A stretch of DNA of 64,000 nt from Candidatus Aminicenantes bacterium (GTDB lineage Bacteria; Acidobacteriota; Aminicenantia; Aminicenantales; UBA4085): assembly GCA_030691735.1 (NCBI GenBank), contig JAUYDS010000118.1:21536-85535 (forward strand). Direction: 5' to 3'. Shown piece after piece: positions 5,670-30,303 of this stretch; position 1 is the first letter of the stretch, and each line of letters opens with the position of its first letter. The position numbers were made by a program, and so were the translations under genes. The notes under the pieces were generated by a model. That model saw nothing but the letters and a program-made list of their open reading frames with translations. It did not search any database and was not told the origin of the DNA.

Positions 5670-5835
5670 TCAAGGGACGAGCCTTCGCGGCGGAAGTACT
5701 CACCCATGTCTTATATTTACGGGTGAGTACGGCGGAAACGGATCCCCAGACGAAGTCTGGGGCCCCTGCCGCCGTGGACCCCCGGGCAAAGCCCGGGGCC
5801 CCGGGCTTTCCCTTGGCGGCCGACGGATCGCTCGG
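5670..5835 (-). repeat. Mosaic palindromic repeat element family A, copy 1 (reverse orientation), intergenic
   Basis: Contains the same modules as copies at 18305, 18636, 29501, 30124 and 49703: the GTCAAGGGACGAGCCTTCG end, a CCCCGGGC-AAA-GCCCGGGG hairpin, and a GTACTCACCC...GGGTGAGTAC hairpin. Confidence 0.85.
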
Positions 5836-5849
5836 CCGTGAGGGGACGA

Positions 5850-6620
5850 TCACTTCTTGAAGATGAACGTCTCCTGGGTCAGGGCTTTGATCTTTTGGCC
5901 GAAGAAGCTCTTGAGGGCCTTCTCGGCCGCCTTGAGCTCGGCCGCTTTCCGCGAGAGGCCGCTGGCCTTGGCCAGGGGTGTCTTGTTGACGAAGACTTCG
6001 ACGACGAATTCCTTTTTGTGATCGGGTCCGGTCGATTTCAGCAACTTATAGTGGGGGGCCGGAAGGTCCTCTTTTTGGAGGAATTCCTGGAGGGCCGATT
6101 TATAATTGTTGATGTCGAGCTGCTCCTCGTCCTTGATCTTCTTGAACGATCCGCGGAGGAGCTTCAGGTAGACATCCTGAGCCGCTTTGTAGCCGCCGTC
6201 GATGAAGATGGCGCCCACCACCGCTTCGAACGTCCCGGCCAGGATGCTCTCCTTCTTCCTGCCTCCGCTCTTCTCCTCGCCCCGGCCGACGCGCATGAAG
6301 TGGTCGAGCCGGATCTGCCGGGCATACTCCGCCAGGGCGATCGTGCTCGTCGCCGAGGATTTCAACTTCGACAGATCGCCCTCGGTGACCTCGGGGTAGG
6401 ATCCGTAGAAGAACGCGGCGGCGATCAGGCCGACGACGGAATCGCCCAGGAACTCCATCAATTCGTTGTCCCTGAACTTTTCGGCGTTCTCGTAGGCGAA
6501 GGAGCTGTGCGTCAGCGCCTGGAGGAGGAGGTCTTTGTTCCGAAACTGATAGCAAAGCTCACGTTCGAGCTCCGAGACGACGCTTGGTTTTTTTCTTTTT
6601 CTCAAGATGTTCCTCATCAT
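5850..6620 (-). CDS. rnc: Ribonuclease III
   Basis: NELMEFLGDS signature (ERLEFLGDA-like); C-terminal dsRBD. Confidence 0.9.
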   Translation of the reverse strand: MMRNILRKRKKPSVVSELERELCYQFRNKDLLLQALTHSSFAYENAEKFRDNELMEFLGDSVVGLIAAAFFYGSYPEVTEGDLSKLKSSATSTIALAEYARQIRLDHFMRVGRGEEKSGGRKKESILAGTFEAVVGAIFIDGGYKAAQDVYLKLLRGSFKKIKDEEQLDINNYKSALQEFLQKEDLPAPHYKLLKSTGPDHKKEFVVEVFVNKTPLAKASGLSRKAAELKAAEKALKSFFGQKIKALTQETFIFKK

Positions 6621-7900
6621 GATGGGAAAGGATAAACGACGCGGCCGCCGACGATCGTCATCACGGGGGCTCCTTTCAGCTTCCAGCCGTGAAAGGGGCT
6701 GTTCCGGCCTTTCGAAGCGAACGCCCCGGCGTCGACCACGACGTTCTGGTGCAGGTTGAGAATCGTCAGATCGGCGTCGGCTCCCACGGCGATCCGGCCT
6801 TTGGCCTGGAGGGAGAGGAGCTGAGCCGGTTTCGTCGAAATCATCTCGATGAAGCGCATGATCGAAATGATGTTCTTGTTGACCAGCCGGTCGAGGAGAA
6901 GAGACACGGCCGTCTCCAGCCCGACCATTCCGAACGGCGCCTTTTCGATCGGCGCGTCCTTCTCCTTGGTCGTATGCGGCGCATGGTCCGTGACGAAGAC
7001 GTCCACCGTGCCGTCCTTGACCGCGGCGATCAGAGCCCGGACGTCCTCGGCGCTCCGCAAAGGGGGGTTCACTTTGAGGGACGTCTCCCGTTTTTCCAGA
7101 TCCCCGTCGTCGAGGAGAAGATGATGCGGGGTGACCTCGGCGCTGATCCTTACGCCCCGCGACTTCGCTTCCCGGACGAAATGGGCCGCGCCTTTGGTGC
7201 TGAGGTGGGCGATATGGACCCGGGTCTCCAACGCTTCGGCCAGGATGATATCCCGGGCGACCATGATTTCCTCGGCCGCCGCCGGGATGCCCGGCAGTCC
7301 GAGCCGCCGCGACGCCGGCCCTTCGTGCATGACCCCGCCTTCCCAGAGCGGCCGGTCCTCGCAGTGGTCGATGACGAGCGCGCCCAGCGACTTCGCCGTT
7401 TCGAGCGCCCGTCGCATGACCCGATTATCCTGGACGCATCTCCCGTCGTCGGAGAAGGCGATGGCTCCGGCTGCGACGAGGTCGGCCATGTCCGTCACCT
7501 CCCAACCCAGAAGCCCCTTGGTCAGGGCTCCGATCGGGTAGACGTTCACGACGGCCTTCTTGGCGGCTTGGGCCAGAATGAATTCGGTCACGGCCCGCTC
7601 ATCGTTGGCCGGTTTCGTGTTCGGCATGGCGCAGACGGAGGTGAATCCTCCTCGGGCGGCCGCCCGGGCCCCCGTCTCGATGGTCTCCTTGGATGTCTGC
7701 CCGGGCTCGCGCAGGTGCGCATGCATATCGATGAAACCGGGCGCGACGACGAGGCGCGCGGCGTCGATGACGGTCGCGTCCCTGGCTTTGATCGAAGGTT
7801 TGATGTCGGCGATCCTGCCGCCGTCGATTAGAATGTCGAGGGTTTCGTCGACGGCGGACTTGGGATCGACGACCCGGCCGTTCTTGATCAGGATTTTCAC
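6617..7900 (-). CDS. pyrC: Dihydroorotase (cyclic amidohydrolase)
   Basis: PGFIDMHAHLREPG metal-binding HxH motif; ~427 aa; adjacent to pyrR. Confidence 0.8.
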   Translation of the reverse strand: MKILIKNGRVVDPKSAVDETLDILIDGGRIADIKPSIKARDATVIDAARLVVAPGFIDMHAHLREPGQTSKETIETGARAAARGGFTSVCAMPNTKPANDERAVTEFILAQAAKKAVVNVYPIGALTKGLLGWEVTDMADLVAAGAIAFSDDGRCVQDNRVMRRALETAKSLGALVIDHCEDRPLWEGGVMHEGPASRRLGLPGIPAAAEEIMVARDIILAEALETRVHIAHLSTKGAAHFVREAKSRGVRISAEVTPHHLLLDDGDLEKRETSLKVNPPLRSAEDVRALIAAVKDGTVDVFVTDHAPHTTKEKDAPIEKAPFGMVGLETAVSLLLDRLVNKNIISIMRFIEMISTKPAQLLSLQAKGRIAVGADADLTILNLHQNVVVDAGAFASKGRNSPFHGWKLKGAPVMTIVGGRVVYPFPS

Positions 7901-7952
7901 GCGGGGTCTCCTCGGAGACGCCGTTCTCCGGCCATATTCGGAACCTCTCCTG

Positions 7953-8507
7953 TCATTTCAGCGCAACGGGCTCCGTGATGAGGACCTCGTCGCGGCTGTC
8001 GATCTCTTTGAGGCGAACCTTGATGATCTCGCGCCGGGAGGAGGGGAGCTGCTTGCCGATATAGTCGGCGCGGATGGGAAGTTCGCGGTGGCCGCGGTCG
8101 ATGAGGACGAGCAGTTGGATCGATCTCGGCCGGCCCAAATCGAACAGGCCTTCCATGGCCGCCCGGATCGTGCGGCCGGTCATCAGGACGTCGTCGACGA
8201 GGATGACGTCCTTTTTGGCGATGGGGAAGGGGATGTCCGTCTTGGTCCCCTTGTGCGGCGTCTCGTTCTTCGAAAAATCGTCGCGGTAGCGGGTGATGTC
8301 CATGATGCCCACGGGGATATCCACGGCCTCCGTCTCCTTGATGATCCTGGAGATGCGCTTACCGATATAGATGCCGCGCGTGCGGATCCCGACGATGACG
8401 AGGGCTTTGAGGTTGCGGTTGCGTTCAAGGATCTCGGTGGCCATGCGGTCGATGACGCGCCGGATCTTCGTCGCGTCCATGACGCTGGCCTTGATCTTTT
8501 CAGTCAT
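7953..8507 (-). CDS. pyrR: Bifunctional pyrimidine operon regulator / uracil phosphoribosyltransferase PyrR
   Basis: PRTase motif VILVDDVLMTGRTIRAA; ~180 aa. Confidence 0.88.
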   Translation of the reverse strand: MTEKIKASVMDATKIRRVIDRMATEILERNRNLKALVIVGIRTRGIYIGKRISRIIKETEAVDIPVGIMDITRYRDDFSKNETPHKGTKTDIPFPIAKKDVILVDDVLMTGRTIRAAMEGLFDLGRPRSIQLLVLIDRGHRELPIRADYIGKQLPSSRREIIKVRLKEIDSRDEVLITEPVALK

Positions 8508-8527
8508 AATCCAACTCCTGGCCTATG

Positions 8528-9490
8528 TTATACCATATTTCGCGGAGACGAGATCTCATTCTTTTCGAAATACCTCCGGGCGTCCTCAAGGTCCTTGTGG
8601 ATCCGGGCCGCCAGCTCCCCGGCGTCGTGAAACGTCCGCTCGTCCCGGATCTTCTTCAAAAAGAACAGTTTGACGGCGGCGCCGTAGATGTTCTTCTTGA
8701 AATCGAGGATGTACGCCTCAATCGTGAGAGGGCGGGCGGCGCCGGGATCGGAGGGGAATGTCGGCCGGCTTCCCACGTTCGTCAGGGAACGGCGGTATTT
8801 TCCACCGATGTCCACGAGGGAGACGAACACGCCTTTGGGGATGATCTCGTTGGGGGTCTCGATATTGGCCGTGGGGAACCCGAGGCTTCGTCCCCGCGCC
8901 ACCCCCCGGACCACGTCGCCCTCGATATCGTACGGTCGACCGAGAAGTTGATTGGCGGTCCCGACATGGCCCAGCTTCAGAAGTTCGCGGATCGCGCTGG
9001 AGCTGACCACGAGGGATTTTTTGCGGACCGGCGGCACGACGAGGACGTCGAACCAGAGCCGTTTGCCGAATTTCCTTAGGGCCGGGATATCGCCGCGGCG
9101 GCCCTTGCCAAAACGGAAATCGGGGCCGACGATGACCGACCGGGCCTTCAGCTTCTTGACCAGGACCTTATGGACGAAATCCTTGCCGGAGAGACGGGCG
9201 AAGTCCGAGTTGAACGGAGCGACCAGGATCAGGTCGACGCCGAGGCCGGCGATGCCTTCGAGCCTCTGGTCGAGCGTCTGGATCATGCTGATCTTCTCGG
9301 AACCGAAGATCTTTTCGGGGTGGGGCGAAAAAGTGAGGACGCCGGAGAGGCAGTTTTTATCCGCGGCCTCGTTTACCACCAAGGACAGGATCTTCCGATG
9401 ACCCAAATGAAGGCCGTCGAAATTGCCAATGGCGAGAGCCGTTTTCCGGGGAAGGTCGGGCACTGCTTCGAGCGAGCGATAGATCTTCAT
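8528..9490 (-). CDS. ribF: Bifunctional riboflavin kinase / FMN adenylyltransferase
   Basis: GNFDGLHLGHRKIL N-terminal nucleotidyltransferase motif; C-terminal riboflavin kinase (GFPTANI). Confidence 0.9.
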   Translation of the reverse strand: MKIYRSLEAVPDLPRKTALAIGNFDGLHLGHRKILSLVVNEAADKNCLSGVLTFSPHPEKIFGSEKISMIQTLDQRLEGIAGLGVDLILVAPFNSDFARLSGKDFVHKVLVKKLKARSVIVGPDFRFGKGRRGDIPALRKFGKRLWFDVLVVPPVRKKSLVVSSSAIRELLKLGHVGTANQLLGRPYDIEGDVVRGVARGRSLGFPTANIETPNEIIPKGVFVSLVDIGGKYRRSLTNVGSRPTFPSDPGAARPLTIEAYILDFKKNIYGAAVKLFFLKKIRDERTFHDAGELAARIHKDLEDARRYFEKNEISSPRNMV

Positions 9491-9535
9491 GGGACTGATA
9501 TCATCCGGCGCTTGGGGCGGTGACCGCCCGCTTCA

Positions 9536-9832
9536 TCACATTTTTATGATGTTGGCCTGTTTCATGTAATTCATTTTGAGCTGGAGGAGACAGGATTCGA
9601 GGAACTTCTCTTCCTCCTCGTTGAGGTTGCCCTTAGTCCGGTCCTTGAGAAGGTCGAGCAAGTCGATGAGCCGTTTGGCGAAATCCAGGTTCCCCTCGGC
9701 CGTCTTTTTAAGCGGATCCTCCATCAGGCCGAGCTTGACCAGAGCTTGCGTATAGAAGGGGAAGACGATGGAGCTGAAATCGAGCGGCGGCAGGAATTCC
9801 TTGTCCTCGTCGTGTTGGTGTTCGTCGCTCAT
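9536..9832 (-). CDS. DUF1844 domain protein
   Basis: PPLDFSSIVFPFYTQALVKLGL..DP....NLD.A...IDLLDLLKDRTKGNL.EEEEKFLE..L..L matches the DUF1844 pattern; only the 3' part of the ORF-track entry 9536..10279 is real. Confidence 0.7.
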   Translation of the reverse strand: MSDEHQHDEDKEFLPPLDFSSIVFPFYTQALVKLGLMEDPLKKTAEGNLDFAKRLIDLLDLLKDRTKGNLNEEEEKFLESCLLQLKMNYMKQANIIKM

Positions 9833-9931
9833 CTTCGATTCGTCCTTTGGCCTGAGTGATGAGCCCTCATCATACTTGGAATCAGGCGAAAATTCAAGAA
9901 AACGAGCGACCTCTTTTCTCTTTTCACTACC

Positions 9932-10759
9932 TTGGTTACAATGGAACGTCATCCGAAAGAGGTCATTATGAAAAAAGCCGATTCTGCCGGACTCGGGTTT
10001 CAAAAACTCGTCGCGATCCTGGCCGCGCTGCGCGGACCGGAGGGCTGCCCGTGGGACAAAGAGCAGGACGAACGGTCCATCGCCAATTATTTCCTGGAAG
10101 AGGTCTACGAGGCGATCGATGCGCTTTTTCGGAACGACGTCGCGGAGTTGGCCGAGGAATTGGGCGACGTCCTGATGGAAGTCGTCTTCTTGGCCCGGAT
10201 CTACGAGGAGAGGGGAGAGTTTACCATCTCCGACGCGCTGGACGGCATCAATCGGAAGATGATCCGCCGGCACCCCCATGTTTTCGGCGGCAAAAAGGTC
10301 GATTCATCTCAACGTGTCCTGGACGAGTGGATTCGCCGGAAGAAAGCCGAAAAAAAGCGGAAATCGCATTTTGAGGGCATCTCCCGGCAGGCCCCCTCGC
10401 TTCTGGCCGCGTTCCAGATCGGTCAGCGAGTGGCCCATTTTGGATTCGACTGGCCCTCGCCCGATGAGGCTCTCAAAAAGGTCCGGGAGGAGATCGGCGA
10501 GCTCGAAGAGACCATGGCCCGGACGAATGTCGGTCGGATCGAGGAAGAGCTCGGCGACTGCTTTTTCGCTTTGGCCAATGTCGCCCGGAAGCTGGGTCTG
10601 AATCCGGAGACAGCTTTACGCCGGGCGAACGATAAATTCATCGAAAGATTCGCGAGACTCGAGAGGAAGCTCAAAGAAAAGGGGATGAAGCTGGGAAAGG
10701 CGAGCCTCGCCGAAATGGACGCGGTCTGGGAGGACATCAAGAAAAAGCGAAGATCCTAG
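9932..10759 (+). CDS. mazG: Nucleoside triphosphate pyrophosphohydrolase MazG
   Basis: LRGPEGCPWDKEQ...EE.YE..DA...ELGD tandem MazG domains; true start may be the internal Met at ~9968. Confidence 0.88.
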   Translation: MVTMERHPKEVIMKKADSAGLGFQKLVAILAALRGPEGCPWDKEQDERSIANYFLEEVYEAIDALFRNDVAELAEELGDVLMEVVFLARIYEERGEFTISDALDGINRKMIRRHPHVFGGKKVDSSQRVLDEWIRRKKAEKKRKSHFEGISRQAPSLLAAFQIGQRVAHFGFDWPSPDEALKKVREEIGELEETMARTNVGRIEEELGDCFFALANVARKLGLNPETALRRANDKFIERFARLERKLKEKGMKLGKASLAEMDAVWEDIKKKRRS

Positions 10760-10821
10760 GAGAGGCAGGAACTTCGATGGAAAGGGGGGCCAGCCGCTAT
10801 ATAAATTAGACCCTCCGTTTT

Positions 10822-13473: not shown

Positions 13474-13487
13474 GGGCGCGCCGCGCG

Positions 13488-14165: not shown

Positions 14166-14368
14166 GGTGGACCTTATGCTTTCCTCATTATATCACGATC
14201 CGACGCGGGCGGAACGAAAGGCCAGATCGGCGTCTTCGCCGCCCTCGATTTCGAGGACCTCGAGACCGTTCATCCGAGGTTAAAAACGCTCCGGCCCGGA
14301 CCGCCCAAATGATTTTCTTCACGTTGATTCCATTATAGAAAGGAGTCCTCGATAAGTCAATAAATTGT

Positions 14369-14398
14369 CTTGACAAAACATCTTCAATAAATTAATTT
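14369..14398 (+). promoter_or_regulatory. Putative sigma70-type promoter for the HU/IHF gene (TTGACA -35)
   Basis: TTGACA at 14369-14374 with an AT-rich -10-like hexamer about 17 nt downstream, about 25 nt before the CDS. Confidence 0.35.
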
Positions 14399-14421
14399 TA
14401 TGTCCTGTTAAGGAGTTCCCC

Positions 14422-15699: not shown

Positions 15700-15714
15700 C
15701 GACCCGCCGCTGAA

Positions 15715-17588: not shown

Positions 17589-17969
17589 TTACGGCTGGAC
17601 CTGGAAATTCCTGTCGAGCTTCACCGAAACGAGCTGGCTCCGGCTTTTGATCGAAACGTCCGATTTGACGAACGCGACTGTCCCGGAAAGACAAAGGTCG
17701 AACCGCTTTTCGAGAAAAAAGGTCTGCGGGACCCTGAGGCAAAGCAGGAGCTTGGTCCCGATCATCACCTTGGATTGAAGGCAGAGAACGGCCTCTTGGG
17801 CGCTGAGCGACGAGACTTCCGTCTGTTCCGAAAATTCCCGTTCGGCGGCGTCGAAGCCTTTGACCAGCGCGGGAAGAGAGAGCTCGAAGGACCGCTCCCT
17901 CTTCCGCGTTTCGGAAAAACCTTGAATGGAAGAGGTGCCGTTTATGTTCATATCCATGAGAGTGATCAA
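17589..17969 (-). CDS. PilZ domain protein (partially degenerate motifs)
   Basis: RKRER (RxxxR) present; second motif EVSSLS deviates from D/NxSxxG. Confidence 0.65.
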   Translation of the reverse strand: MITLMDMNINGTSSIQGFSETRKRERSFELSLPALVKGFDAAEREFSEQTEVSSLSAQEAVLCLQSKVMIGTKLLLCLRVPQTFFLEKRFDLCLSGTVAFVKSDVSIKSRSQLVSVKLDRNFQVQP

Positions 17970-18466
17970 GCCTCGGGTCGGATGATGTATTTGCTGTCGA
18001 ACTTGATCGTGACCTTCTGGCGGATGAGACGGTCGCGGTCGGCTTCGACTTGGGTCACTTTGCCTTTGATGACCATTTTCAGGGACTTGTCCTGGGCGAG
18101 CTTCTCCGGCAGGTCGATGATCAGTTTCAACCGCATGCCGATATTGATCGGATTCTTGAGGTAAAACGTCGATCCCTCGTGACTGATGTAGGTCAGGACC
18201 GTGTCCTCGGCGAATTCTTTTCCCTGGGCGTTCAAGCCCTCGACTTGGGTCGGCAGGGGAAAGGTGAATCCCTGATCCCGACCTGCCGGGGTGTGCGGAC
18301 CTTCGACGGCGGCCGGGGCGGCGGCAGGGGCCCCAGGCTTTGTCTGGGGATCCGTTTCCGCCGTACTCAGCCGCGTATTTACATCGCGGGTGAGTGCCCC
18401 GGGCTTTGCCCGGGGTTCCACTTCCGCCGCGAAGGCTCGTCCCTTGACATATGGCTCTTTTGTCAT
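17966..18466 (-). CDS. PilZ domain protein carrying an in-frame family A repeat insertion in its N-terminal region
   Basis: C-terminal PilZ fold (MRLKLIIDLPE...KGKVTQVE...VTIKFD); N-terminal residues 10-55 (RAFAAEVEPRAKPGALTRDVNTRLSTAETDPQTKPGAPAAAPAAV) are encoded by repeat element 18305..18448; RxxxR motif absent. Confidence 0.6.
   Translation of the reverse strand: MTKEPYVKGRAFAAEVEPRAKPGALTRDVNTRLSTAETDPQTKPGAPAAAPAAVEGPHTPAGRDQGFTFPLPTQVEGLNAQGKEFAEDTVLTYISHEGSTFYLKNPINIGMRLKLIIDLPEKLAQDKSLKMVIKGKVTQVEADRDRLIRQKVTIKFDSKYIIRPEA
18305..18448 (+). repeat. Mosaic palindromic repeat element family A, copy 2 (inside the PilZ gene 17966..18466)
   Basis: Shares the CCCCGGGCTTTGCCCGGGG hairpin, the GTACTCAGCCGCG...CGCGGGTGAGTG hairpin and the GAAGGCTCGTCCCTTGAC end with the other copies. 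Confidence 0.85.
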
Positions 18467-18635
18467 GATCGCTTCCTTATTCCGAATTCCTTTTCCTTGG
18501 CCTCGCCGTCAGCTTAAATCGGCCTCCAAGAGGGGTCAATCACCCCTAAAGATGAAAAAAGGGGTGATATTTCCCTTGGGGATTGTCACCTCCCGCATTG
18601 ACGATGAAGCAAGCTTCGTTTAACATGGAGGCCAC

Positions 18636-18774
18636 AGCGGCCGGGGCCCCGGGCTTTGCAGTCCTCATTCGCGAAGCGAATGAGGGCGGGCTTTGCTCGG
18701 GGGTCCACTTCCGCCGTACTCGCCCGTGAATATAAGCCACGGGCGAGTGGCGAGCCGAAGGCTCGTCCCTTGAC
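18636..18774 (+). repeat. Mosaic palindromic repeat element family A, copy 3 (intergenic)
   Basis: Modules: GGCCGGGGCCCCGGGCTTTG, the CCTCATTCGC-GAA-GCGAATGAGG hairpin, the GTACTCGCCCGTG...CACGGGCGAGTGG hairpin, and the GAAGGCTCGTCCCTTGAC end. Confidence 0.85.
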
Positions 18775-18794
18775 TGACGATTCGGAGAGTGGAT

Positions 18795-20609
18795 ATGCAA
18801 GCAGTCATTTTAGCCGCGGGCATGGGCAAACGCCTGGGAGATCTCACCCGGCATTCCACGAAATGCATGGTCAAGGTCAACGGCAAGCGCCTCATCGAAC
18901 ACGCCTTGGACGCCCTTTTGGCGGCCGGCATCCGGCATGTGGTGATGGTCGTCGGCCACGGCGCCGACGAGCTCAAAGCCTTCCTGGGAGACGCGTACAA
19001 GGGCGCCAGAGTCGATTATGTTCTCAATCCCATCTACGCGAAGAGCAATAACATTTATTCGCTGTTCCTCGTTCGCGCCTTCATGGAGGCCGATGATTCC
19101 CTTCTCCTTGAGAGCGACGTCATCTTCGACCCCGCCATCATCGAAGACTGTTTGGCCGATCCTTCGCCCAACCTGGCCATCGTGGCCAAGTTCCAGTCCT
19201 GGATGGACGGCACGGTCACCAAGCTCGATGACCGGGAATTCATCTCCTGTTTCGTTTCGAAGAAGGAGATCGTCTGGAGCGACCTGGATCAATATTTCAA
19301 GACCGTCAACATCTATAAACTGTCCAAGGCGTTCAGCAAGGAGAGGTTTTTCCCTTTTCTCGAGGTCTATATCCGGGCCAAGGGGCTCAATGAATATTAC
19401 GAGGAGGTCCTCAAAATCCTGACCTTCATCGATCAGGGAAGCATCAAAGCCTTCGACATCAGCGACAGGCTCTGGTATGAGATCGACGACCTCCAAGACC
19501 TCGACATCGCCGATGCCTTGTTCTCCCGCGGCTTGGACAAGCTCAAGGCTTTGTATCAGAGATTCGGCGGGTATTGGAGGTTCCCGGCGCTCAAGGATTT
19601 CTGCTATCTGGTCAATCCCTATTTTCCCGCGCCGCGGATGGTCCACGAGATGATCCGCAGCTTCCCCCAGCTCCTGACGAGCTATCCCTCGGGCCAAAAG
19701 GTCCAGAACCTGTTGGGCTCTAAGCTGCTCGGCTGTCCCCCCCAGCAGGTGCTCGTGGGCAACGGCGCCTCGGAGCTGATCAAAGGCCTCGTGCCGGAAT
19801 GCGGGGGACCGTTGGCCTTGTCCGTTCCGACGTTCGATGAATATCGGGCCGGCGCTCCCAAAGACCAATGGCGCGTTTTTTATCCGGCCCCCGGGACGTT
19901 CGACTATTCCGGCGATCAGCTGGCCGATTTCTGCGCCGCCCAGAAGGTCTCGACGCTGATTCTGATCAACCCCGACAACCCCAGCGGCCATTTTCTGGCG
20001 AAGTCGGATGTCCTCAGGCTCCTCGAGAGACTTCGGACGATGAACGTCCGGCTGATCCATGACGAATCCTTTGCCGATTTCGTCGACGGAACGACCGATC
20101 ACTCCCTGATCTCACCCGACATCCTGGACCGCTTTCCGAATCTCGTGGCGGTCAAGAGCATCAGCAAGTCCTACGGTGTGCCGGGTCTCCGCCTGGGGAT
20201 CATCGCCTCGGGGGATCTCGGTCTCCTGGAACGGGTGAAGAATCGCCTGTCCATCTGGAACATCAATTCCTTCGCCGAGCATTTCCTCCAGATCATCGAC
20301 AAATACAACCATGATTTCCGCCACGCCTGCCGCAACATCGGCGCGGAGAGAGAGCATCTGTTCGAACGGCTCCGGGAGATCTCCTTCCTCCGTCCGATTC
20401 CTTCCAAGGCGAATTATATTCTGTGCGAGGTCAAGGCGCCCTGGACCCCGACGCGTCTGGCCGAGACTCTCTTGAACGCCTCCTGGCTCTTCATCAAGGA
20501 CTGCACGGGGAAGATCGGTTTCGAAAAAACGCCCTGCATCCGGTTGACGGTTCGCGATCGGAACGATAACGAGTTTCTCATCTCGGCCTTGAAAGCCCTC
20601 GACAAGTAG
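18795..20609 (+). CDS. Bifunctional protein: N-terminal LicC-like CTP:phospho-alcohol cytidylyltransferase fused to C-terminal PLP-dependent class I/II aminotransferase-fold enzyme (CobD/HisC-like)
   Basis: N-domain: QAVILAAGMGKRL, NPIYAKSNNIYSLFL, LWYEIDDLQDLD (LicC-like). C-domain: VAVKSISKSYGVPGLRLGI PLP-lysine motif, INPDNPSG. Likely ATG at 18795 (GTG at 18789 possible). Confidence 0.7.
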   Translation: MQAVILAAGMGKRLGDLTRHSTKCMVKVNGKRLIEHALDALLAAGIRHVVMVVGHGADELKAFLGDAYKGARVDYVLNPIYAKSNNIYSLFLVRAFMEADDSLLLESDVIFDPAIIEDCLADPSPNLAIVAKFQSWMDGTVTKLDDREFISCFVSKKEIVWSDLDQYFKTVNIYKLSKAFSKERFFPFLEVYIRAKGLNEYYEEVLKILTFIDQGSIKAFDISDRLWYEIDDLQDLDIADALFSRGLDKLKALYQRFGGYWRFPALKDFCYLVNPYFPAPRMVHEMIRSFPQLLTSYPSGQKVQNLLGSKLLGCPPQQVLVGNGASELIKGLVPECGGPLALSVPTFDEYRAGAPKDQWRVFYPAPGTFDYSGDQLADFCAAQKVSTLILINPDNPSGHFLAKSDVLRLLERLRTMNVRLIHDESFADFVDGTTDHSLISPDILDRFPNLVAVKSISKSYGVPGLRLGIIASGDLGLLERVKNRLSIWNINSFAEHFLQIIDKYNHDFRHACRNIGAEREHLFERLREISFLRPIPSKANYILCEVKAPWTPTRLAETLLNASWLFIKDCTGKIGFEKTPCIRLTVRDRNDNEFLISALKALDK

Positions 20610-22199: not shown

Positions 22200-22207
22200 A
22201 AAAGAGA

Positions 22208-22840: not shown

Positions 22841-22929
22841 AGCGGAGCGGGGATCCCTCCCGATCACCGAAAAAAAACCTTGCCGTGCGGTCCTTCTCGT
22901 TTTATGATTTAAAAACGACAGAGGTCAAG

Positions 22930-24281: not shown

Positions 24282-24287
24282 CTCGGG

Positions 24288-25969: not shown

Positions 25970-26403
25970 CAGGTGTTGTAGGGCGTCCCGTCCAGACTTT
26001 TATCTTCCGAGCTCGAATGCACGTCCACGACCCCGAACGCTTGTCCGGGCTCGAGCTCGTCCACGGTCGGCTGTTCTTTGACCTCGATCCAAGCGTCGGA
26101 TTTGCCGGTGATGGGATCCGCCGGGATCTTTCTCAAATATTTCTCGTCCACGAGGGCTTGGAGCGAGTCCGGATATTTGCTCTTGTCCGTATAGTACTGG
26201 TCGATGAGCTTGCGCAGTACGAAGAGGGTCTCTTTGAGCACGGATTCGCGGGCTTTTTTCATGGCGTTTTGGTACTGGGGGAGGGCCAGGCCGACCAGAA
26301 TGCCGATCAGGGTGAAGACGATGACCATTTCGATCAGCGTGAAGCCTTTGGATTTGCGGCGAAACATCATGGGGTCCTCACCAGTCCCTGTAGTTGGTCC
26401 CAT
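25966..26403 (-). CDS. Type II secretion / type IV pilin-like pseudopilin (GspG-like)
   Basis: KGFTLIEMVIVFTLIGIL prepilin cleavage/methylation motif; ends ...DGTPYNTW as in GspG. Confidence 0.8.
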   Translation of the reverse strand: MGPTTGTGEDPMMFRRKSKGFTLIEMVIVFTLIGILVGLALPQYQNAMKKARESVLKETLFVLRKLIDQYYTDKSKYPDSLQALVDEKYLRKIPADPITGKSDAWIEVKEQPTVDELEPGQAFGVVDVHSSSEDKSLDGTPYNTW

Positions 26404-26866
26404 CGAGAGCCTTGCGGCGGCTCTTGGTGTAGACGTCGAAGATGTTCTGTTCGCCCCAGGACGAAGCGTCAGGAGCGTCCTGGCTCGACAGCAAGCCCCA
26501 TTCCGTCGATCGGGTCATGGGGTCCGAGGGGACACGGCGGAGGAACCTCATCAGCTTTTCCTCGCCCTTTTTGTTCTTGGCCTCGGATTTGATCTTGACG
26601 CCTTTGACGAGCGTCTCCAGGTCCGGCGGATACCCATCGGTGGAGTCATCCACTTCGATCCTCTTCTCGTCGGCCATCTTTTTATAATCGTCGATCGCTT
26701 CCCGAATGATCCGGAGATTGCGATGCAGTTCGATCTCCTTCTCCCGCTGGACGGCGATCTTGGTCAGGGGTAGGATGGCGCCGGCCAGGACGACCAGGAT
26801 GGCGGCCGCCACGAGAAGCTCCGTGAGGCTAAATCCGTCTTGCCGAGGCATTGTGCTCGTCCTCAT
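26378..26866 (-). CDS. Type II secretion / type IV pilin-like pseudopilin (GspG-like paralog)
   Basis: DGFSLTELLVAAAIL prepilin motif; C-terminal DGTNYRDW. Confidence 0.75.
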   Translation of the reverse strand: MRTSTMPRQDGFSLTELLVAAAILVVLAGAILPLTKIAVQREKEIELHRNLRIIREAIDDYKKMADEKRIEVDDSTDGYPPDLETLVKGVKIKSEAKNKKGEEKLMRFLRRVPSDPMTRSTEWGLLSSQDAPDASSWGEQNIFDVYTKSRRKALDGTNYRDW

Positions 26867-26918
26867 GACCCAAGGCGATCGGGCGAAGCCCCGATGGATC
26901 TATTGTCTTAGCGTGCGA

Positions 26919-29111
26919 TTAGTACCGGCCCCGGCGGTCGGAACGGGGGCCCGAGCCCTGGGGCTTTTTATATCGCGGTTCCTGGTCCCGGTTGGGCTGA
27001 CCTTCGCGGGGCGGCGCCTCTTCTCCGGGATTCGAGTTCTCTTCGAGGGCCTTCATACTTAGTTTTATCTTGCCGCCCTCTTCGACGTTAAGGACTTTGA
27101 CGCTGACGGTCTGTCCTATTTTCAGGACGTCGCGGACGCTCGAGACCCGGTAGTTGGCGATCTCGGAGACATGCATCAGTCCGACGAGGTTGGGCAGGAT
27201 CTCGACGAAGGCGCCGTATTCCTCGATGCGGACGACCTTGCCGGTGTAAGTCCGGCCGACCTCGGCCTCGGCGGTGATCTCGATGATCATCTGCTTGGCC
27301 TTCTCGGCCGCCTCCACGTCGGTCGAGGCGATGGTGATCTTGCCCGTCTCATCGACGTCGATCTTGGCCTTGGTCAGAGCGACGATGCGCTTGATGACCT
27401 TGCCCGCGGGTCCGATGACCTCGCCGATCTTCTCCGGGCTGATGAACAGAGTGAAGATATGGGGGGCATAGGGGGAAATGTCCGGGCGGGGCGCCGGGAT
27501 GGCTTCCTTCATCTTTTCGAGCACTTGGAGGCGGGCGACCCGCGCTTTGTCCAGAGCCTCGCGGATGATGTCCATGGAAATGCAGTCGAGCTTCAGGTCG
27601 AGCTGGATGGCCGTGACGCCCTTGTCCGTGCCGGAGACTTTAAAGTCCATGTCGCCGAAGTGGTCTTCCAGTCCGGCGATGTCGGTCAGGATGGCGTAGC
27701 GGTCGCCCTCCTTGACCAGGCCGATGGCGATGCCGGCGACGACCATGGATAGCGGCACTCCGGCGTCCATGAGCGCAAGCACTCCGCCGCAGACCGTGGC
27801 CATCGACGACGAGCCGTTCGATTCCATGATGTCGGAGACGATGCGGACCGTGTAGGGGAACTTCTCCTCGGTGGGCATGGCGGGCAGGATGGATTTCTCG
27901 GCCAGGGCGCCGTGACCGATCTCGCGCCGGCCGGGTCCGCGGAGGAAGCCCACTTCGCCGACCGAAAAGGGAGGGAAGTTATAATGGAGCATGAACCGCT
28001 TCTTGGTCTCCTCGCCCAGGCTGTCCAGCCGCTGGGCGTCCTCGGGCGTTCCCAAGGTCACGGTGGCCAGGCATTGTGTCTCGCCTCGGGTGAAGACGGC
28101 CGAGCCGTGCGTCCGAGGCAGCATCCCGATCTCAATCGAGATCGGCCGGATGTCGTCGAAGCCGCGGCCGTCCACGCGCCGGCGCTTGTCCAGGATCAGG
28201 CGGCGGGCGAGCTTTTCCTCGAGTTTATTGAAGAGTTCTTTTGTTTCGAAGCGCTCTTTGGCGTTCTCTTGGGGGATGGCCTCGATGAGGCCTTTCAGGA
28301 TCGCGGTTACGGCCTCTTCGCTGGCTTTCTTGCCGGGCGTCTGGATGGCCTCGAACAAGGTCGATCCGATCTTCGTTTCGATCTCGGCCAGTTTCGACGC
28401 GTCGGGCAGATTGGGGGTGAAGGTGCGTTTCTTGATGCCGAGCTTCTGGTAGAGCTCCTTCTGAATATCGATGATCTGGCGGATGGGACCCATGGCCGCG
28501 GCGATGGCGCCGAGGATCTTTTCCTCGTCGACCTCGTTGGCTCCGGCTTCGATCATGGTCACGCCTTCTCCCGTTCCGACCACGAGCAGGTTGAGGGGGC
28601 TGATTTCACGTTCCTTGGCCGTTGGGTTGATGACGTACCGATCGTTGATCAGGCCGACCTTGACCGCGCCGATGGGCGTGGTGAAGGGAATGTCGGAAAA
28701 GTACAGCGCCGCCGAAGCGCCGATGAGGCCGAGCGTATCGGGCTCGTTCTCGATGTCGGCCGACAGGAGCAGGCCGACGACCTGCGTCTCGAAGAAATAG
28801 CCGTCGGGGAAAAGGGATCGGACGGGCCGGTCGATCAGCCGGGCGACGAGGATCTCGCGCTCCGAAGGCCGGCCTTCGCGCTTGAAAAAGCCCCCGGGGA
28901 TCTTCCCGGCGGAGTAGGTGTTCTCCCGGTAATCGACGATCAGGGGAAGAAAGGGCTTGTCCTCTTTGGCCTCCCGTTTGGAGGTCGCGGCGACGAACAT
29001 GACCGTATCGCCGTAGCGAACGAGCGCGGAGCCGTCCGCCTGTTTGGCGATCTTGCCGATCTCTATGGATAAGATGCGCTGATTGATCTCAAGACTGATT
29101 GTGTGAGACAT
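26919..29111 (-). CDS. pnp: Polyribonucleotide nucleotidyltransferase (PNPase)
   Basis: Two RNase PH domains, KH and S1 domains; 730 aa. Confidence 0.92.
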   Translation of the reverse strand: MSHTISLEINQRILSIEIGKIAKQADGSALVRYGDTVMFVAATSKREAKEDKPFLPLIVDYRENTYSAGKIPGGFFKREGRPSEREILVARLIDRPVRSLFPDGYFFETQVVGLLLSADIENEPDTLGLIGASAALYFSDIPFTTPIGAVKVGLINDRYVINPTAKEREISPLNLLVVGTGEGVTMIEAGANEVDEEKILGAIAAAMGPIRQIIDIQKELYQKLGIKKRTFTPNLPDASKLAEIETKIGSTLFEAIQTPGKKASEEAVTAILKGLIEAIPQENAKERFETKELFNKLEEKLARRLILDKRRRVDGRGFDDIRPISIEIGMLPRTHGSAVFTRGETQCLATVTLGTPEDAQRLDSLGEETKKRFMLHYNFPPFSVGEVGFLRGPGRREIGHGALAEKSILPAMPTEEKFPYTVRIVSDIMESNGSSSMATVCGGVLALMDAGVPLSMVVAGIAIGLVKEGDRYAILTDIAGLEDHFGDMDFKVSGTDKGVTAIQLDLKLDCISMDIIREALDKARVARLQVLEKMKEAIPAPRPDISPYAPHIFTLFISPEKIGEVIGPAGKVIKRIVALTKAKIDVDETGKITIASTDVEAAEKAKQMIIEITAEAEVGRTYTGKVVRIEEYGAFVEILPNLVGLMHVSEIANYRVSSVRDVLKIGQTVSVKVLNVEEGGKIKLSMKALEENSNPGEEAPPREGQPNRDQEPRYKKPQGSGPRSDRRGRY

Positions 29112-29132
29112 GGTTTTCGGTGAAGGGGGCCT

Positions 29133-29399
29133 TTACTTGCGAAGCCCGAGCTTTTGGATCAGTTTTTCGTAGCGGCCGCTGTCTTCCTTTTTCAGGTAGG
29201 CCAGAAGCCGTTTCCGTTGCCCGACGAGCTTCATCATGCCCATAGGGGAATGATGGTCGGTCTTGAACGCGGTCATATGCCGGCTCAGCTGGCTGATCCG
29301 CTCGCTGAGGAGCGCGATCTGGACCTCGGCCGAGCCCGTGTCCGTCGGATGGACTTTGTTCTCGGTGATGAGCTTGTCTTTCTTGTCTTTCGTCAACAC
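29133..29399 (-). CDS. rpsO: 30S ribosomal protein S15
   Basis: 88 aa; GSAEVQIALLSERI...L..H....KD.HS..GL; conserved rpsO-pnp synteny. Confidence 0.92.
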   Translation of the reverse strand: MLTKDKKDKLITENKVHPTDTGSAEVQIALLSERISQLSRHMTAFKTDHHSPMGMMKLVGQRKRLLAYLKKEDSGRYEKLIQKLGLRK

Positions 29400-29500
29400 T
29401 TTAATTTTTCTCCTTTAAATCGTTGATATCATAGCAAAAATGGATGGGGATGTAAACCCGGGGAGACCCGCGGCGGGCCGGATAGGCGCCGGCCCATATG

Positions 29501-29568
29501 TCCACGGCGGCCGGGGCCCCGGGCTTTGCCCGGGGGTCCACTTCCGCCGCGAAGGCTCGTCCCTTGAC
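29501..29568 (+). repeat. Mosaic palindromic repeat element family A, copy 4 (minimal form, intergenic)
   Basis: TCCACGGCGGCCGGGGCCCCGGGCTTTGCCCGGGGGTCCACTTCCGCCGCGAAGGCTCGTCCCTTGAC: the two ends plus the core hairpin only. Confidence 0.85.
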
Positions 29569-29646
29569 GATCGCCGGGAATAGGGTTGTAGAAGGGAAGC
29601 AGCCCCTCTGTTCGTCGTTGGAAGGGTCAAGGTCGGTGGTTGCGGC

Positions 29647-29865
29647 TTACTTGGCCAGCGCTTTTTTGCGCTGCAGAAGCTGTTTGGCGTAGCGTGATCT
29701 CAGAAATCCCTGGGCGACCTTGACCTCGTTCAGCTTGACATCGATCTCGGCCAGGGTCATCTTGTTGATCTTCTTGTTGCCTTCCGCCTTATTCTGTTCG
29801 GCGTCGCCGGCGGCCTGGGCTTCGGCCTTTGGCCCGGGCTTGGCGGTCTCTTTTTTGTCTGCCAT
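29647..29865 (-). CDS. Hypothetical small Lys/Ala-rich protein
   Basis: 72-aa ORF upstream (in transcription) of rpsO-pnp; no recognised domain. Confidence 0.4.
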   Translation of the reverse strand: MADKKETAKPGPKAEAQAAGDAEQNKAEGNKKINKMTLAEIDVKLNEVKVAQGFLRSRYAKQLLQRKKALAK

Positions 29866-30016
29866 ACGTTTTTCCTTGTGTTTATTAATCTTTCTTTTTC
29901 CGAATGATGATAACAGAATTCTCCGTCCGGGTCAATATGATATCGCGAATACGCCGTTCATCTGCTATTGATGGATTTATATTCAGGCGAACAGGCTATG
30001 TCCAGGCGGCGGTTAT

Positions 30017-30121
30017 AATCCCCCCACACCCCCCCTTTACTTGGCGGGAAATCAGGTTCCCCCTTTCCTAAAGCGGGCAATCAGTTCCCCCCTTTTCTAA
30101 AGGGGGGTTAGGGGGGATTAT
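30017..30121 (+). repeat. Repeat family B: tandem C5-8/G5-8 clamp hairpins (CCCCCTTTTCTAAAGGGGGG...GGGGGGATTAT)
   Basis: About 40 nt nearly identical to 46612-46652; several CCCCC-(A/T-rich loop)-GGGGG hairpins. Confidence 0.7.
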
Positions 30122-30123
30122 CA

Positions 30124-30303
30124 ACGGCGGCCGGGGCGGCGGCAGGGGCCCCAGGCTTTGCAGTCCTCATTTGCGAAGCGAATGAGGGCAGGCTTTGTCT
30201 GGGGATCCGTTTCCGCCGTACTCAGCCGCGTATTTACATCGCGGGTGAGTGCCCCGGGCTTTGCCCGGGGGTCCACTTCCGCCGCGAAGGCTCGTCCCTT
30301 GAC
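30124..30303 (+). repeat. Mosaic palindromic repeat element family A, copy 5 (longest form, intergenic)
   Basis: Contains all modules (the CCTCATTTGCGAAGCGAATGAGG hairpin, the GTACTCAGCCGCG hairpin, the core CCCGGG hairpin and both ends). Confidence 0.85.

Follow-up and report, generated by a model that had tools for sequence, protein, structure and literature searches.

RPEs of Rickettsia are palindromic repeats of ~100-150 nt without transposase coding, many of which lie in frame in unrelated genes that seem to be functional, adding a conserved peptide compatible with the fold of the host protein (PMC10969869; PMC3733652). RAYTs are believed to move REPs tagged with GTAG/GTRG, of which intragenic copies are known (PMC3733652; PMC3337134). 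Classical MITEs such as Correia, ERIC and Nezha are small, abundant and non-autonomous, and are occasionally intragenic with open frames (PMC10969869). We analysed a repeat family in Candidatus Aminicenantes that can be compared with each of these systems.

Six copies of the repeat lie in the window, by which we mean the whole 64,000-nt stretch of DNA that was analysed (Table 1). The initial annotation had proposed six copies with common ends and a core hairpin with a TTT loop, and these proposals were borne out. All six were recovered at or within a few bases of where they had been placed, and the exact 18/19-mer (C)GAAGGCTCGTCCCTTGAC is present in 6/6 (0.04 expected by chance; 0/100 shuffles reached 6), the 3' end common to all copies being an exact 19 nt. 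The hairpin CCCCGGGC-TTT-GCCCGGGG (H1) also occurs in every copy, in copy 3 split by another module. Folded as DNA, the long form has an MFE of -45.1 kcal/mol (z = -7.8 against shuffles) and copy 3 one of -47.3 kcal/mol (z = -5.2); covariation, at 2 double changes, was not above shuffles and gave no independent support for the hairpins. The stop-free frame that had been taken as a sign of an active element does exist, but is expected by chance, as we estimated that each frame is open with a probability of ~0.56-0.70 in 63-102 nt of ~70% G+C DNA. With boundaries corrected to (G/A)GCGG at the left and TTGAC at the right, the six repeats are genuine copies of a small hairpin-rich mobile DNA element. 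No match to the family was found in Rfam (even at E up to 1, and with no RPE-type family among the results), plasmids, viral contigs or the literature; the family is apparently undescribed and frequent in uncultured Aminicenantes.

Table 1. Copies of the repeat in the window (assigned from sequence), with their targets, host genes and surroundings; neighbouring genes are from Pfam.
Feature	Position	Strand	Description	Target	Surroundings
Copy 1	5669-5821	-	Nested, composite		Between an AI-2E transporter gene (4633-5655, +) and an RNase III gene (5850-6620, -), whose 3' ends converge
Copy 1, outer element	5669-5695 (3' part), 5774-5821 (5' part)	-	Short type		
Copy 1, inner unit	5696-5773		78-nt B-type unit	Directly after internal GTCCAC of outer element	
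Copy 2	18308-18448	+	141-nt composite: left end, B-type unit, H1 hairpin, tail	TTCGAC, 18302-18307	Within host gene
Copy 2 host gene	17966-18466	-	PilZ-domain protein, 166 aa here vs 119-120 aa in relatives; identity from source names of homologues ('PilZ domain-containing protein'), Pfam itself giving no hit on the window protein		
Copy 3	18636-18774	+	139 nt, long form with H3 inside the H1 loop	GCCAC, 18631-18635	~20 nt upstream of start of nucleotidyltransferase/aminotransferase gene (18789/18796-20609, +)
Copy 4	29506-29568	+	Minimal 63-nt short form	TCCAC, 29501-29505	~100 nt upstream of rpsO (S15, 29133-29399, -)
Copy 5	30126-30303	+	178-nt composite: left end, B-type unit containing H3 (30165-30187), H1, tail	TCAAC, 30121-30125	Intergenic; neighbours are a 72-aa ORF (29647-29865, -) and, on the other side, a sodium:solute symporter gene (30479-32140, +)
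Copy 6	49708-49809	+	Canonical 102-nt long form: short form plus 39-nt H2 block	TCCAC, 49703-49707	Within host gene
Copy 6 host gene	48220-49977	-	GH28 / pectate-lyase-fold glycoside hydrolase, 585 aa here vs ~551 aa in relatives		

The element is G+C-rich and non-autonomous and ranges across the family from 63 to ~180 nt, with dominant length classes of 63 and 101/102 nt. Its left end is (G/A)GCGGCCGGGG followed by H1, and at its right end another hairpin, which is GGCGAGCC-GAA-GGCTCGTC in long forms and only 3 bp in the short form, precedes CCTTGAC; the left and right hairpins are dissimilar. The short form of copy 4 consists, in order, of GGCGGCCGGGG, H1, GTCCACTTCCGCCG and CGAAGGCTCGTCCCTTGAC. 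In copy 3, the H3 palindrome CCTCATTCGC-GAA-GCGAATGAGG lies at 18663-18685 within the loop of H1, bordered by a 9-nt direct duplication of GGGCTTTGC, while positions 30189-30303 of copy 5 match copy 2 at 99% identity along 115 nt (repeat family D6). On the reverse strand, the order in H1 is GTGG-AC-hairpin, similar to REPs tagged with GTAG/GTRG: one unit has a GTGG tag 5' of the stem, as degenerate GTAG REPs do. The tail unit, unlike GTAG REPs, is tagged GTCA.

The two further hairpin modules are present or absent as first described, and the mosaic build is real. Nesting accounts for part of it: because an internal GTCCAC sits just 3' of H1, elements nest in one another, and independent nested insertions at two loci (L021 and L052) each lie directly after this motif. 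Gain and loss of hairpin modules at one site adds to it, with precise 39-nt and 19-nt hairpin indels between orthologous sites. Since H3 has its 9-nt flanking duplication and H2 has no TCSAC site at its left junction, insertion at TCSAC leaves part of the mosaic unexplained. Tandemly duplicated modules were seen at one locus (L033), and two others (L036 and L039) have a common 3' flank and different 5' flanks, so that one breakpoint coincides with the element.

The family has been mobile recently. Close relatives provided five filled-versus-empty pairs, for copies 2, 3, 4 and 6 and the inner unit of copy 1, and the differences are exact (63, 78, 102, 139 and 141 nt) with an ambiguity of at most 2 nt ('AC'). 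Removal of 18308-18448 (copy 2) or of 18636-18774 (copy 3) yields a gap-free alignment to contig L087. At copy 4, precisely 63 nt are missing from the empty site in L085 (GGCGATC/GTGGAC), and L084 is filled. The empty site of copy 6 in L079 reads CAAAAGGCG/GTGGACGCT, with ~99% identity around the site and 96-97% identity over kilobases (blastn). Contigs L088 and L089, with an RNase III protein identical to that of the window, read GGGGGTCCAC/TTCCGCCG at the copy 1 site, lacking both the 78-nt unit and a 19-nt hairpin. For copy 5, no empty site was found among relatives.

The insertion point lies immediately 3' of a pre-existing TCSAC, in one orientation relative to the motif, and this target resembles the element's own 3' end, TTGAC. 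In the 5' flanks of 53 canonical copies, positions -5 to -1 are T (38), C (47), C (26) or G (22), A (43) and C (50), with no conservation beyond -5 upstream and none in the 3' flank. This strict target, the nested insertions and the two in-frame copies in protein genes had been missed by the initial annotation, which had instead described TCAA(C/G)GG as a 7-bp terminal inverted repeat. The left five bases of that repeat are target DNA already present in empty sites, so the repeat is not real; TCAAC stands to the left of copy 5 only, and the other copies have TCCAC, TCGAC or GCCAC. Target-site duplications, which were also to be looked for, are absent from all five filled/empty pairs and from the two nested insertions. 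The proposal of a proliferating MITE/REP-like element thus stands for a non-autonomous, REP-like, mosaic and recently mobile element, and falls for the MITE anatomy.

A genome scan found at least 78 loci outside the window across at least 14 assembly accessions, giving 88 copies for analysis together with those of the window; nearly all of the loci listed are labelled Aminicenantes/Acidobacteria or carry generic binning labels. Presence in at least 14 species-level Aminicenantes genomes shows that the family is not restricted to the window, and it is lineage-specific to Aminicenantes (Acidobacteriota). Copies occur in both orientations and in all intergenic configurations, many of them in untranslated positions on the 5' or 3' side (such as ahead of rpsO or between convergent genes), as well as within coding sequences. 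The family is ~92% identical across species in which orthologous proteins are only 65-85% identical. A GGCGGAC variant is private to one genome (9/18 JBEKTZ copies, 0 elsewhere), which points to amplification within a lineage.

By description, the element is like RPEs in lying in frame in host proteins, where the insert is a predicted disordered loop. It differs from RPEs in its host, a free-living and environmental member of an unrelated phylum, and in its defined 5-nt target, exact empty sites, nested insertions, modular build and translation in several frames and orientations. With REP/BIME/REPIN sequences it shares short G+C-rich hairpin units in mosaic clusters, high copy number, long-term uniformity within a lineage and intragenic copies (PMC3733652; PMC3337134). 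Unlike these, about a fifth of the copies are intragenic, the units are direct and not inverted as in a REPIN doublet, and the transposing unit is a whole 63-180 nt array with fixed asymmetric ends. As IS200/IS605 elements and their palindrome-associated non-autonomous derivatives (PATEs) are described, the element has neither inverted repeats nor target duplication, lies 3' of a 4-5 nt motif at its left end and has subterminal hairpins near both ends; it differs from them in that no tnpA/tnpB partner or full-length element was found for the family.

On balance, the family is probably a REP/BIME-like and RPE-like non-autonomous element moved in trans by a RAYT-type or IS200/IS605-type HUH transposase acting on single-stranded DNA. 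IS200/IS605-type transposition has as its signature a specific 4-5 nt target next to one end, subterminal hairpins and the lack of both terminal inverted repeats and target-site duplication, and it is from these features, together with the REP-like GTGG tag of H1 and the private GGCGGAC variant, that we infer such an enzyme. A RAYT-like or IS200/IS605 TnpA-like HUH tyrosine transposase would make its cuts 3' of TYSAC, both in the left flank and at the right end ('peel and paste'), with the hairpins as its putative binding sites. The cognate transposase suggested earlier was sought with IS608 TnpA, IS200 TnpA and E. coli RAYT (tblastn and phmmer; the IS608 and RAYT queries were checked against PDB 2a6m and 4er8), and nothing was found in 648 kb around ~90 copies. 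No link between the family and any kind of transposase emerged, no gene family recurred beside copies in all-vs-all clustering of neighbours, and a metagenome scan for left ends followed by sequence other than the tail or H2 yielded 4 hits and 0 autonomous elements. IS200/IS605 elements usually show lagging-strand bias and typically have similar left and right hairpins; the Aminicenantes hairpins are not alike, and orientation relative to local GC skew showed no bias (n = 66, p = 0.52), a weak test with 8-kb flanks. No obvious guide-to-cleavage-site complementarity was seen in the element.

It is unlikely that another recombinase acts in trans, whether IS110/IS1111 with a bridge RNA, an IS91 rolling-circle HUH enzyme, or a tyrosine or serine recombinase on folded hairpins as in integron attC sites. 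Asymmetric ends without inverted repeats, sequence-specific targeting and the short 'AC' overlap of target and end would suit it, and the habits of IS91, which inserts beside a tetranucleotide without duplication, and of IS110 elements, which share a 2-nt core with the target, are comparable. Core sites of bridge RNAs and recombinases are normally constrained on both sides, however, and conservation here is limited to the 5 nt that flank the insertion point on one side. The neighbourhoods of the sampled copies contain no gene of these kinds, the sole tyrosine recombinase seen being an insertion host and not a neighbour, and attC-type core sites (GTTRRRY) are absent from the window copies. Slightly less probable again is movement without a dedicated enzyme, by template switching at hairpins, microhomology (AC) and gene conversion or recombination between copies. 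The indels at orthologous sites, the tandem duplication in L033, the breakpoint of L036 and L039 and the 2-nt microhomology at junctions fit this explanation, but slippage cannot carry an element, entire and exact, to new loci that are unlinked, and the constant orientation to a 5-nt motif is far more specific than 2-nt microhomology. The uniformity of the family across species likewise argues for sequence-specific recognition.

It is very improbable that the repeats are structured RNA or DNA signals (terminators, mRNA stabilisers, regulatory hairpins or protein-binding sites) kept by selection for function. The hairpins are very stable, many copies lie in untranslated positions, and REPs are known to be exapted in such ways (PMC3733652), but presence varies between near-identical relatives, copies lie in both orientations, in all intergenic configurations and in coding sequence, and no U-tract follows the hairpins. 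The covariation and Rfam results above also stand against a selected structure. The MITE model of the first annotation, an internally deleted DDE-transposase IS with terminal inverted repeats and cut-and-paste movement with target duplication, is close to refuted: size, copy number, palindromic character and the lack of an own ORF fit, as does a 7-nt end similarity (TCAACGG/CCTTGAC) in the copy at 30121, but the supposed inverted repeat disappears into target DNA, GGCGGCC... and ...CCCTTGAC, which are the true ends, do not form inverted repeats, conservation is in the 5' flank only, no autonomous or parent IS with these ends was found, and the target-site duplications that accompany 15-30 bp terminal inverted repeats in Correia, ERIC and Nezha are missing.

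Two window copies, 2 and 6, are in frame with their host genes and are read on the minus strand. Copy 2 separates codons 6 and 7 of the PilZ-domain gene by 47 aa (VKGRAFAAEVEPRAKPGALTRDVNTRLSTAETDPQTKPGAPAAAPAA), and homologues of the protein lack precisely these residues in alignments. Copy 6 adds 34 aa (VKGRAFGSPLARGLYPRASTAEVDPRAKPGAPAA) to the GH28 protein; these are missing from all GH28 homologues aligned, which carry Pfam PF00295, PF12708 and PF13229. In an AlphaFold2 model, residues 58-86 of this insert have pLDDT <50 and the rest is a confident beta-helix fold, which predicts a disordered loop for the insert. Family-wide, at least 13 host proteins were confirmed by Pfam or homologues, including NuoN, the LigA adenylation domain, DPP-IV/S9 peptidase, GNAT, iPGM, an LptD-like protein, a PD40 propeller, M20 peptidase, histidine kinase, the tyrosine recombinase, DAG kinase, Ser/Thr kinase and alpha/beta hydrolase; MsrB, PilN, CCA-adding enzyme and sugar kinases are labels that come only from precomputed Pfam or the names given by the sources. 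The insert of LigA is 61 aa long and takes the place of a 4-residue loop that immediately precedes motif III in E. coli LigA. Between them, the copies use at least 3 different frames and orientations of translation. As the main unit lengths are multiples of 3 nt (63, 39, 78, 102, 141 and 180) and several reading frames are open, insertions at GTS-GAS (Val-Asp/Glu) codons and other TCSAC sites survive as in-frame loops in genes that remain functional.

All six copies of the palindromic repeat proposed in the initial annotation were present in the window, and a repeat finder recovered the same family. The exact 18-mer GAAGGCTCGTCCCTTGAC occurs in every copy (six matches against 0.04 expected; none of 100 dinucleotide-preserving shuffles reached six), and both the left motif (T/G)NNAC-(G/A)GCGGCCGGGG and the common core hairpin CCCCGGGC-TTT-GCCCGGGG (H1) recur as first described. 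In the orientation of copies 2-6, the left end of the element is (G/A)GCGGC(C/A)GGGG, directly followed by H1 and then GTCCACTTCCGCCG, and the tail is CGAAGGCTCGTCCCTTGAC. An optional 39-nt block consists of the hairpin H2 (TACTCGCCCGTGG...CCACGGGCGAGTG) and GCGAGC; the shortest form, copy 4, measures 63 nt, and the common long form, represented by copy 6, measures 102 nt. A second unit of 78 nt, named "B-type", is found in copies 1, 2 and 5 and has a similar left end and H1 and a terminal H2-type hairpin, while in copies 3 and 5 the palindrome H3 (CCTCATTCGC-GAA-GCGAATGAGG) lies within an H1-type hairpin loop. Single-strand folding is well beyond that of shuffled sequences, with -45.1 kcal/mol and z = -7.8 for the long form and z ~ -5 for the composites. 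H1 begins 11 nt from the left end; at the right end, the long form has an 8-bp hairpin that stops 7 nt before the terminus and the short form a stem of only 3 bp, and the left and right end hairpins are dissimilar. Covariation across 40 long-form copies (94.9% of cells pair, with 2 double changes, no better than shuffles) was uninformative because the copies are too alike.

Positions of the repeat copies and of other features discussed in the text; positions are those of the window except where another locus is named
Feature	Position	Strand	Remark
Copy 1	5669-5821	-	contains B-type unit
Copy 2	18308-18448	+	in PilZ-domain gene
Second-family hairpin cluster	18536-18585		intergenic
Copy 3	18636-18774	+	contains H3
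Copy 4	29506-29568	+	minimal form
Second-family hairpin cluster	30030-30120		intergenic
29-nt tandem array	30030-30106
Copy 5	30126-30303	+	contains B-type unit and H3
Two paralogous genes	37201-41117		695 and 605 aa
Palindrome	41183-41213		flanks tRNA-Gly(CCC)
tRNA-Gly(CCC)	41309-41381
Palindrome	41411-41441		flanks tRNA-Gly(CCC)
Second-family hairpin cluster	46506-46650		intergenic
Copy 6	49708-49809	+	long form, in GH28 gene
tRNA-Leu(CAA)	61773-61859
Low-G+C region	61860-64000		47% G+C
78-aa ORF	62616-62852		KH-like by eye only
A-rich tandem repeat	62952-63034
Isolated H1+H3 hairpin, locus L030	4003-4060		CCCCGGGCTTTGCAGTCCTCATTCGCGAAGCAAATGAGGGCGGGCTGAAGCCCGGGG
Element, locus L046 (JBEKTZ010000002.1)	2572-2676		between iPGM halves

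Other repeats were observed in the window. A second small-hairpin family, CCCCC(C)TTT(T)CTAAAGGGGG(G), forms clusters of two to three, one of them immediately left of copy 5, and a similar hairpin (GGGGTGAT/ATCACCCC) lies between copies 2 and 3. The palindromes on either side of tRNA-Gly(CCC), CCGAATTCTAAAGAATTCGG and GGGGACA...CCGAATTCTCCGGAATTCGG, are an 84% inverted-repeat pair, and their loop motif TTCTAAAG is that of the C/G-rich hairpin family. Right after tRNA-Leu(CAA), G+C falls from ~60% and there are few credible ORFs; this region could be an integrated-element remnant or a non-coding region. Several direct-repeat families (D3-D5, D19) are unrelated to the element and are due to repeated Asp-rich DxDxDG...DEDG motifs in two adjacent paralogous genes.

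Empty sites in close relatives revealed exact insertions. For copy 6, precisely the corresponding 34 residues are missing from every GH28 homologue inspected, one of them 97% identical; in the DNA of that relative (L079, ~99% identical to the window around the site and 96-97% over kilobases) the site is CAAAAGGCG|GTGGACGCT, where the bar marks the place of precisely 102 additional bases in the window. At the site of copy 4, contig L085 reads GGCGATC|GTGGAC with exactly 63 nt absent, and L084 is filled. Copies 2 and 3 are both missing in L087, to which the window aligns gap-free over 351 nt once the two copies are removed. In copy 1 it is the nested 78-nt unit that is missing in L088 and L089 (RNase III identical), where the site reads GGGGGTCCAC|TTCCGCCG. 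For copy 5 no empty site was found, and there is no record of the 72-aa protein next to it. In each empty-site case the inserted block runs from (G/A)GCGG to TTGAC or GTAC, and the sequence immediately 5' of it is a pre-existing TCCAC, TCGAC or GCCAC. No target-site duplication was seen in the five filled/empty comparisons or in two nested insertions, the sole boundary ambiguity (at most 2 nt) being the dinucleotide AC common to the target and the element's end.

The same target was read from the left flanks of 53 canonical copies among the matches listed, in which the five positions are T in 38, C in 47, C in 26 or G in 22, A in 43 and C in 50, with no conservation further upstream or in the right flank. 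Hairpins are not enriched upstream of target sites (p = 0.31). The element itself holds an internal GTCCAC just 3' of H1, and at L021 and L052, which are unrelated loci, the internal GTCCAC of a short element is directly followed by a whole long one; these nested insertions are natural replicates of the target rule. Since the empty sites show that the left 5 nt are target DNA, the 7-nt terminal inverted repeat of the initial annotation is an artefact, and the true ends, GGCGGCCGGGG... and ...GGCTCGTCCCTTGAC, are asymmetric and not inverted copies of each other. The element inserts in one orientation 3' of TCSAC, without terminal inverted repeats or target-site duplication, and nests at its own internal target. 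We are highly confident that it represents a mobile, TCSAC-targeted, duplication-free and non-autonomous family.

The modules underlying the mosaic architecture first described are real; nesting accounts for part of the architecture and remodelling in place for another part. At two pairs of orthologous sites with flanks 93-97% identical (L055/L065 and L010/L068), a long form faces a short form, and the two differ by precisely one 39-nt H2 block and also in H1. In copy 1, a precise 19-nt H1 hairpin is missing in relatives of the window strain. H3 is bordered on both sides by a 9-nt direct duplication, GGGCTTTGC, and is also found inverted and alone with H1. The TCSAC rule leaves the duplication, inversion and solitary occurrence of H3 unaccounted for. 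At locus L030, an isolated H1+H3 hairpin has neither left-end motif nor tail, so this module, at least, can exist apart from the full element.

Copies are not limited to the window: a search for the 19-mer tail in one genome per prokaryotic species returned at least 78 loci in at least 14 assembly accessions, and the window and the matches listed together hold at least 88 copies. Among the matches listed, the main length classes are 63 nt (~15 copies), 102 nt (~26) and 101 nt (12), and the loci are mostly labelled Candidatus Aminicenantes or Acidobacteria, with generic automated labels ("uncultured Eubacteriales" or "bacterium") on four accessions (CAZLAM, CAZZCH, CAZGJS and JAUYCZ). One contig labelled Spirochaetes (L039, JAPLSM010000184.1) that carries the element is probably mis-binned, since its 3' flank is orthologous to that of the element-bearing locus L036 of MAG CAZGJS. 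On the 5' side L036 and L039 are unrelated, and the breakpoint at the element could stem from rearrangement or from chimeric assembly. Copies from different genomes are ~92% identical with the search tail left out, against 65-85% protein identity of GH28 orthologues, and among the matches listed identity within genomes (0.946) is similar to that between genomes (0.921). A GGCGGAC variant is private to one genome (JBEKTZ), where 9 of 18 copies have it and none elsewhere among the matches listed, a pattern that points to amplification inside one lineage.

The element has no match in Rfam: covariance models matched only two tRNAs in the whole window, and at E up to 1 the stretch 18250-18820 gave only chance-level matches, to mir-149 (22 bits against a gathering threshold of 79) and to the ClpQY promoter (19.7 against 42). 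The family was absent from plasmids (blastn) and from viral contigs (scan), and the literature open to searching, by sequence and by subject, yielded no description of it.

Translation runs through two of the six copies in the window. A GH28 glycoside hydrolase (585 aa) gains 34 aa from copy 6, and a PilZ-domain protein gains 47 aa from copy 2, placed behind codon 6, and is 166 aa long against 119-120 aa in all relatives. At other loci, spanning ORFs and Pfam matches placed a 180-nt element in the adenylation domain of NAD-dependent DNA ligase (LigA) and in-frame copies in NuoN, a DPP-IV/S9 peptidase, a GNAT acetyltransferase, iPGM, an LptD-like protein, a PD40 propeller protein, an M20 peptidase and a histidine kinase. 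Protein searches added a tyrosine recombinase, DAG kinase/YegS, a Ser/Thr kinase and an alpha/beta hydrolase; MsrB, the CCA-adding enzyme, PilN, ribulokinase, a PIN-domain protein and glucokinase are putative hosts named from precomputed Pfam or source names only. Pfam or homologues confirm at least 13 of the host proteins. With a crude gene caller, 18 of the 75 classifiable copies among the matches listed lie inside genes, and intergenic copies occupy all configurations of flanking genes. An element at locus L046 lies in an open frame that runs from the C-terminal half of iPGM through the element to an iPGM N-terminal half; this may be a case of two gene parts, tandem or permuted, that the element joins without a stop codon.

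The stop-free frames pointed out in the initial annotation are present but unremarkable in themselves at ~70% G+C. Translation uses three frames, one on the opposite strand (VKGRAF(GSPLARGLYPRAST)AEVDPRAKPGAPAA) and two on the same strand (TAAGAPGFARGSTSAAKARPLT and GGRGPGLCPGVHFRR...EGSSLD). Read from the opposite strand the target is GTS-GAS, which puts insertions directly ahead of Val-Asp or Val-Glu codons. Every verified coding copy has a length divisible by three (63, 102, 141 or 180), which is what selection requires, and among the matches listed the 101-nt subfamily was found outside genes only. AlphaFold2 models the GH28 protein with a mean pLDDT of 85.9; residues 58-86 of the insert, which break an N-terminal helix, lie below 50, and the beta-helix is confidently modelled. 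In LigA, a loop of 4 residues (160-163 in E. coli) immediately preceding motif III is replaced by 61 residues. One peptide search returned mostly short spurious ORFs and is no measure of coding-insertion frequency; a separate exhaustive search of representative proteins gave 83 matches, an underestimate because insert-bearing proteins cluster with insert-free orthologues. Dozens of "hypothetical proteins" of 40-100 aa (P0121-P0176, many with Q8O91_... tags) are translated intergenic copies in public Aminicenantes MAGs.

Lacking terminal inverted repeats and target-site duplications, the family fails two defining tests of a classical MITE. A short specific target at one end, asymmetric ends, subterminal hairpins and no duplication are the hallmark of "peel and paste" transposition by the HUH Y1 enzymes of IS200/IS605. 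Placement immediately 3' of a specific target of 4-5 nt that adjoins the left end, without inverted repeats or duplication, likewise matches an IS200/IS605-derived non-autonomous element (PATE), and TCSAC is similar to TTGAC, the terminus of the element itself. We propose that the element would be mobilised in trans by a single-strand HUH Y1 transposase of IS200/IS605 or RAYT type, and that one nuclease could cut after TYSAC at both the target and the element terminus. On the reverse strand, H1 reads as GTGG-AC-stem, the tail as GTCA-AGG-stem and the B-type H2 as GTAC-stem; the first is reminiscent of REPs tagged GTAG/GTRG, whose movement is attributed to RAYTs and which have documented intragenic copies (PMC3733652; PMC3337134), with GTGG tag variants known in O. 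terrae (PMC3733652).

The cognate transposase anticipated in the initial annotation was not found. Using IS608 TnpA, IS200 TnpA and RAYT as queries (the IS608 and RAYT queries validated against PDB), tblastn and phmmer gave none in 648 kb around ~90 copies, and phmmer gave no match at E up to 10 among 5,366 ORFs. Weak tblastn matches to Y1 transposases in two loci (L002 and L024) were ordinary genes, such as one for a DapF-like protein. Clustering of ORFs around the copies showed no recurrent mobility gene, the only large cluster being joined by the element's own peptide. No RAYT gene flanked by repeats was present near the ~90 sampled copies; with about one RAYT per genome, just one or two such neighbours are expected in this sample. 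An autonomous IS with the same ends was seen neither in the 648 kb of flanks nor in a targeted metagenome scan: tail-less left-end motifs in the fetched loci were chance coding matches (L045 and L052) or a decayed copy (L010), and the four metagenome matches to a left end followed by neither tail nor H2 were a point mutant, a composite, a truncated copy at a locus orthologous to L021 and one chance match. Orientation showed no bias relative to replication (mean flank GC skew 0.003 in element orientation, n = 66, p = 0.52), for which 8-kb flanks are a weak proxy. The missing mobility gene and autonomous version, the lack of orientation bias and of upstream hairpin enrichment, and the unlike end hairpins count against an HUH enzyme. 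We put an HUH single-strand DNA transposase acting in trans at close to an even prospect, if anything slightly under; blending this with the case for mobility, the overall reading of a mobile family moved by such an enzyme comes out a little better than even.

The family is RPE-like in action, REP/BIME-like in build and of IS200/IS605-derived type in its insertion rule, and every one of its properties is already known separately in other bacteria. With Rickettsia palindromic elements (RPEs) it shares in-frame palindromic insertion into functional ORFs with a conserved peptide; the likeness is one of mode of action in hosts that are Aminicenantes MAGs, and homology is not claimed. With REP/BIME it shares G+C-rich imperfect palindromes, here H1, H2, H3 and the tail hairpin, combined in several mosaics at high copy number. 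It departs from their extragenic location in that copies also lie inside genes, although intragenic REPs are documented (PMC3733652). Its membership of the RAYT/REP or IS200/IS605 systems must await an enzyme.

A further reading is that the family is adapted to live in coding sequence, beyond mere tolerance. The independent building blocks (63-nt core, 39-nt H2 block and 78-nt B unit, giving 102, 141 and 180) are all multiples of three, for which the chance with three independent lengths is ~1 in 27; together with at least three open frames and a target whose reverse complement encodes Val-Asp/Glu, this suggests that the element could be a "protein-colonising" transposon. We consider it unlikely that the family is such an independently evolved RPE-like transposon, moved by an HUH or RNA-guided enzyme. 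If it were, a conserved flexible peptide (VKGRAF...PGAPAA) would have been added to dozens of proteins, essential ones included, and the mobilising enzyme may be of an HUH or RNA-guided type so far unlinked to such elements. One possibility is that the three-hairpin unit would double as a TnpB-type guide-RNA scaffold, with the flank beyond TTGAC as guide.

The family has practical effects in Aminicenantes MAGs, where it gives rise to spurious "hypothetical protein" calls and makes real proteins longer, with a risk of misleading annotation, and the repeat may act as a marker of mis-binned contigs. Short-read contigs of close relatives (L084, L086, L088 and L089) stop inside or at the edge of the element, so the repeat fragments short-read assemblies of these populations. 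The movement of small palindromic repeats such as RPEs and REPs, and the way in which proteins tolerate them, are largely unsettled questions. The family described here offers unusually clean natural evidence on the two of them: near-identical relatives have exact filled and empty alleles, the target is 5 nt long, elements nest in one another, and the hosts include essential enzymes (DNA ligase and NADH dehydrogenase subunit N) in a widespread, uncultured bacterial class.
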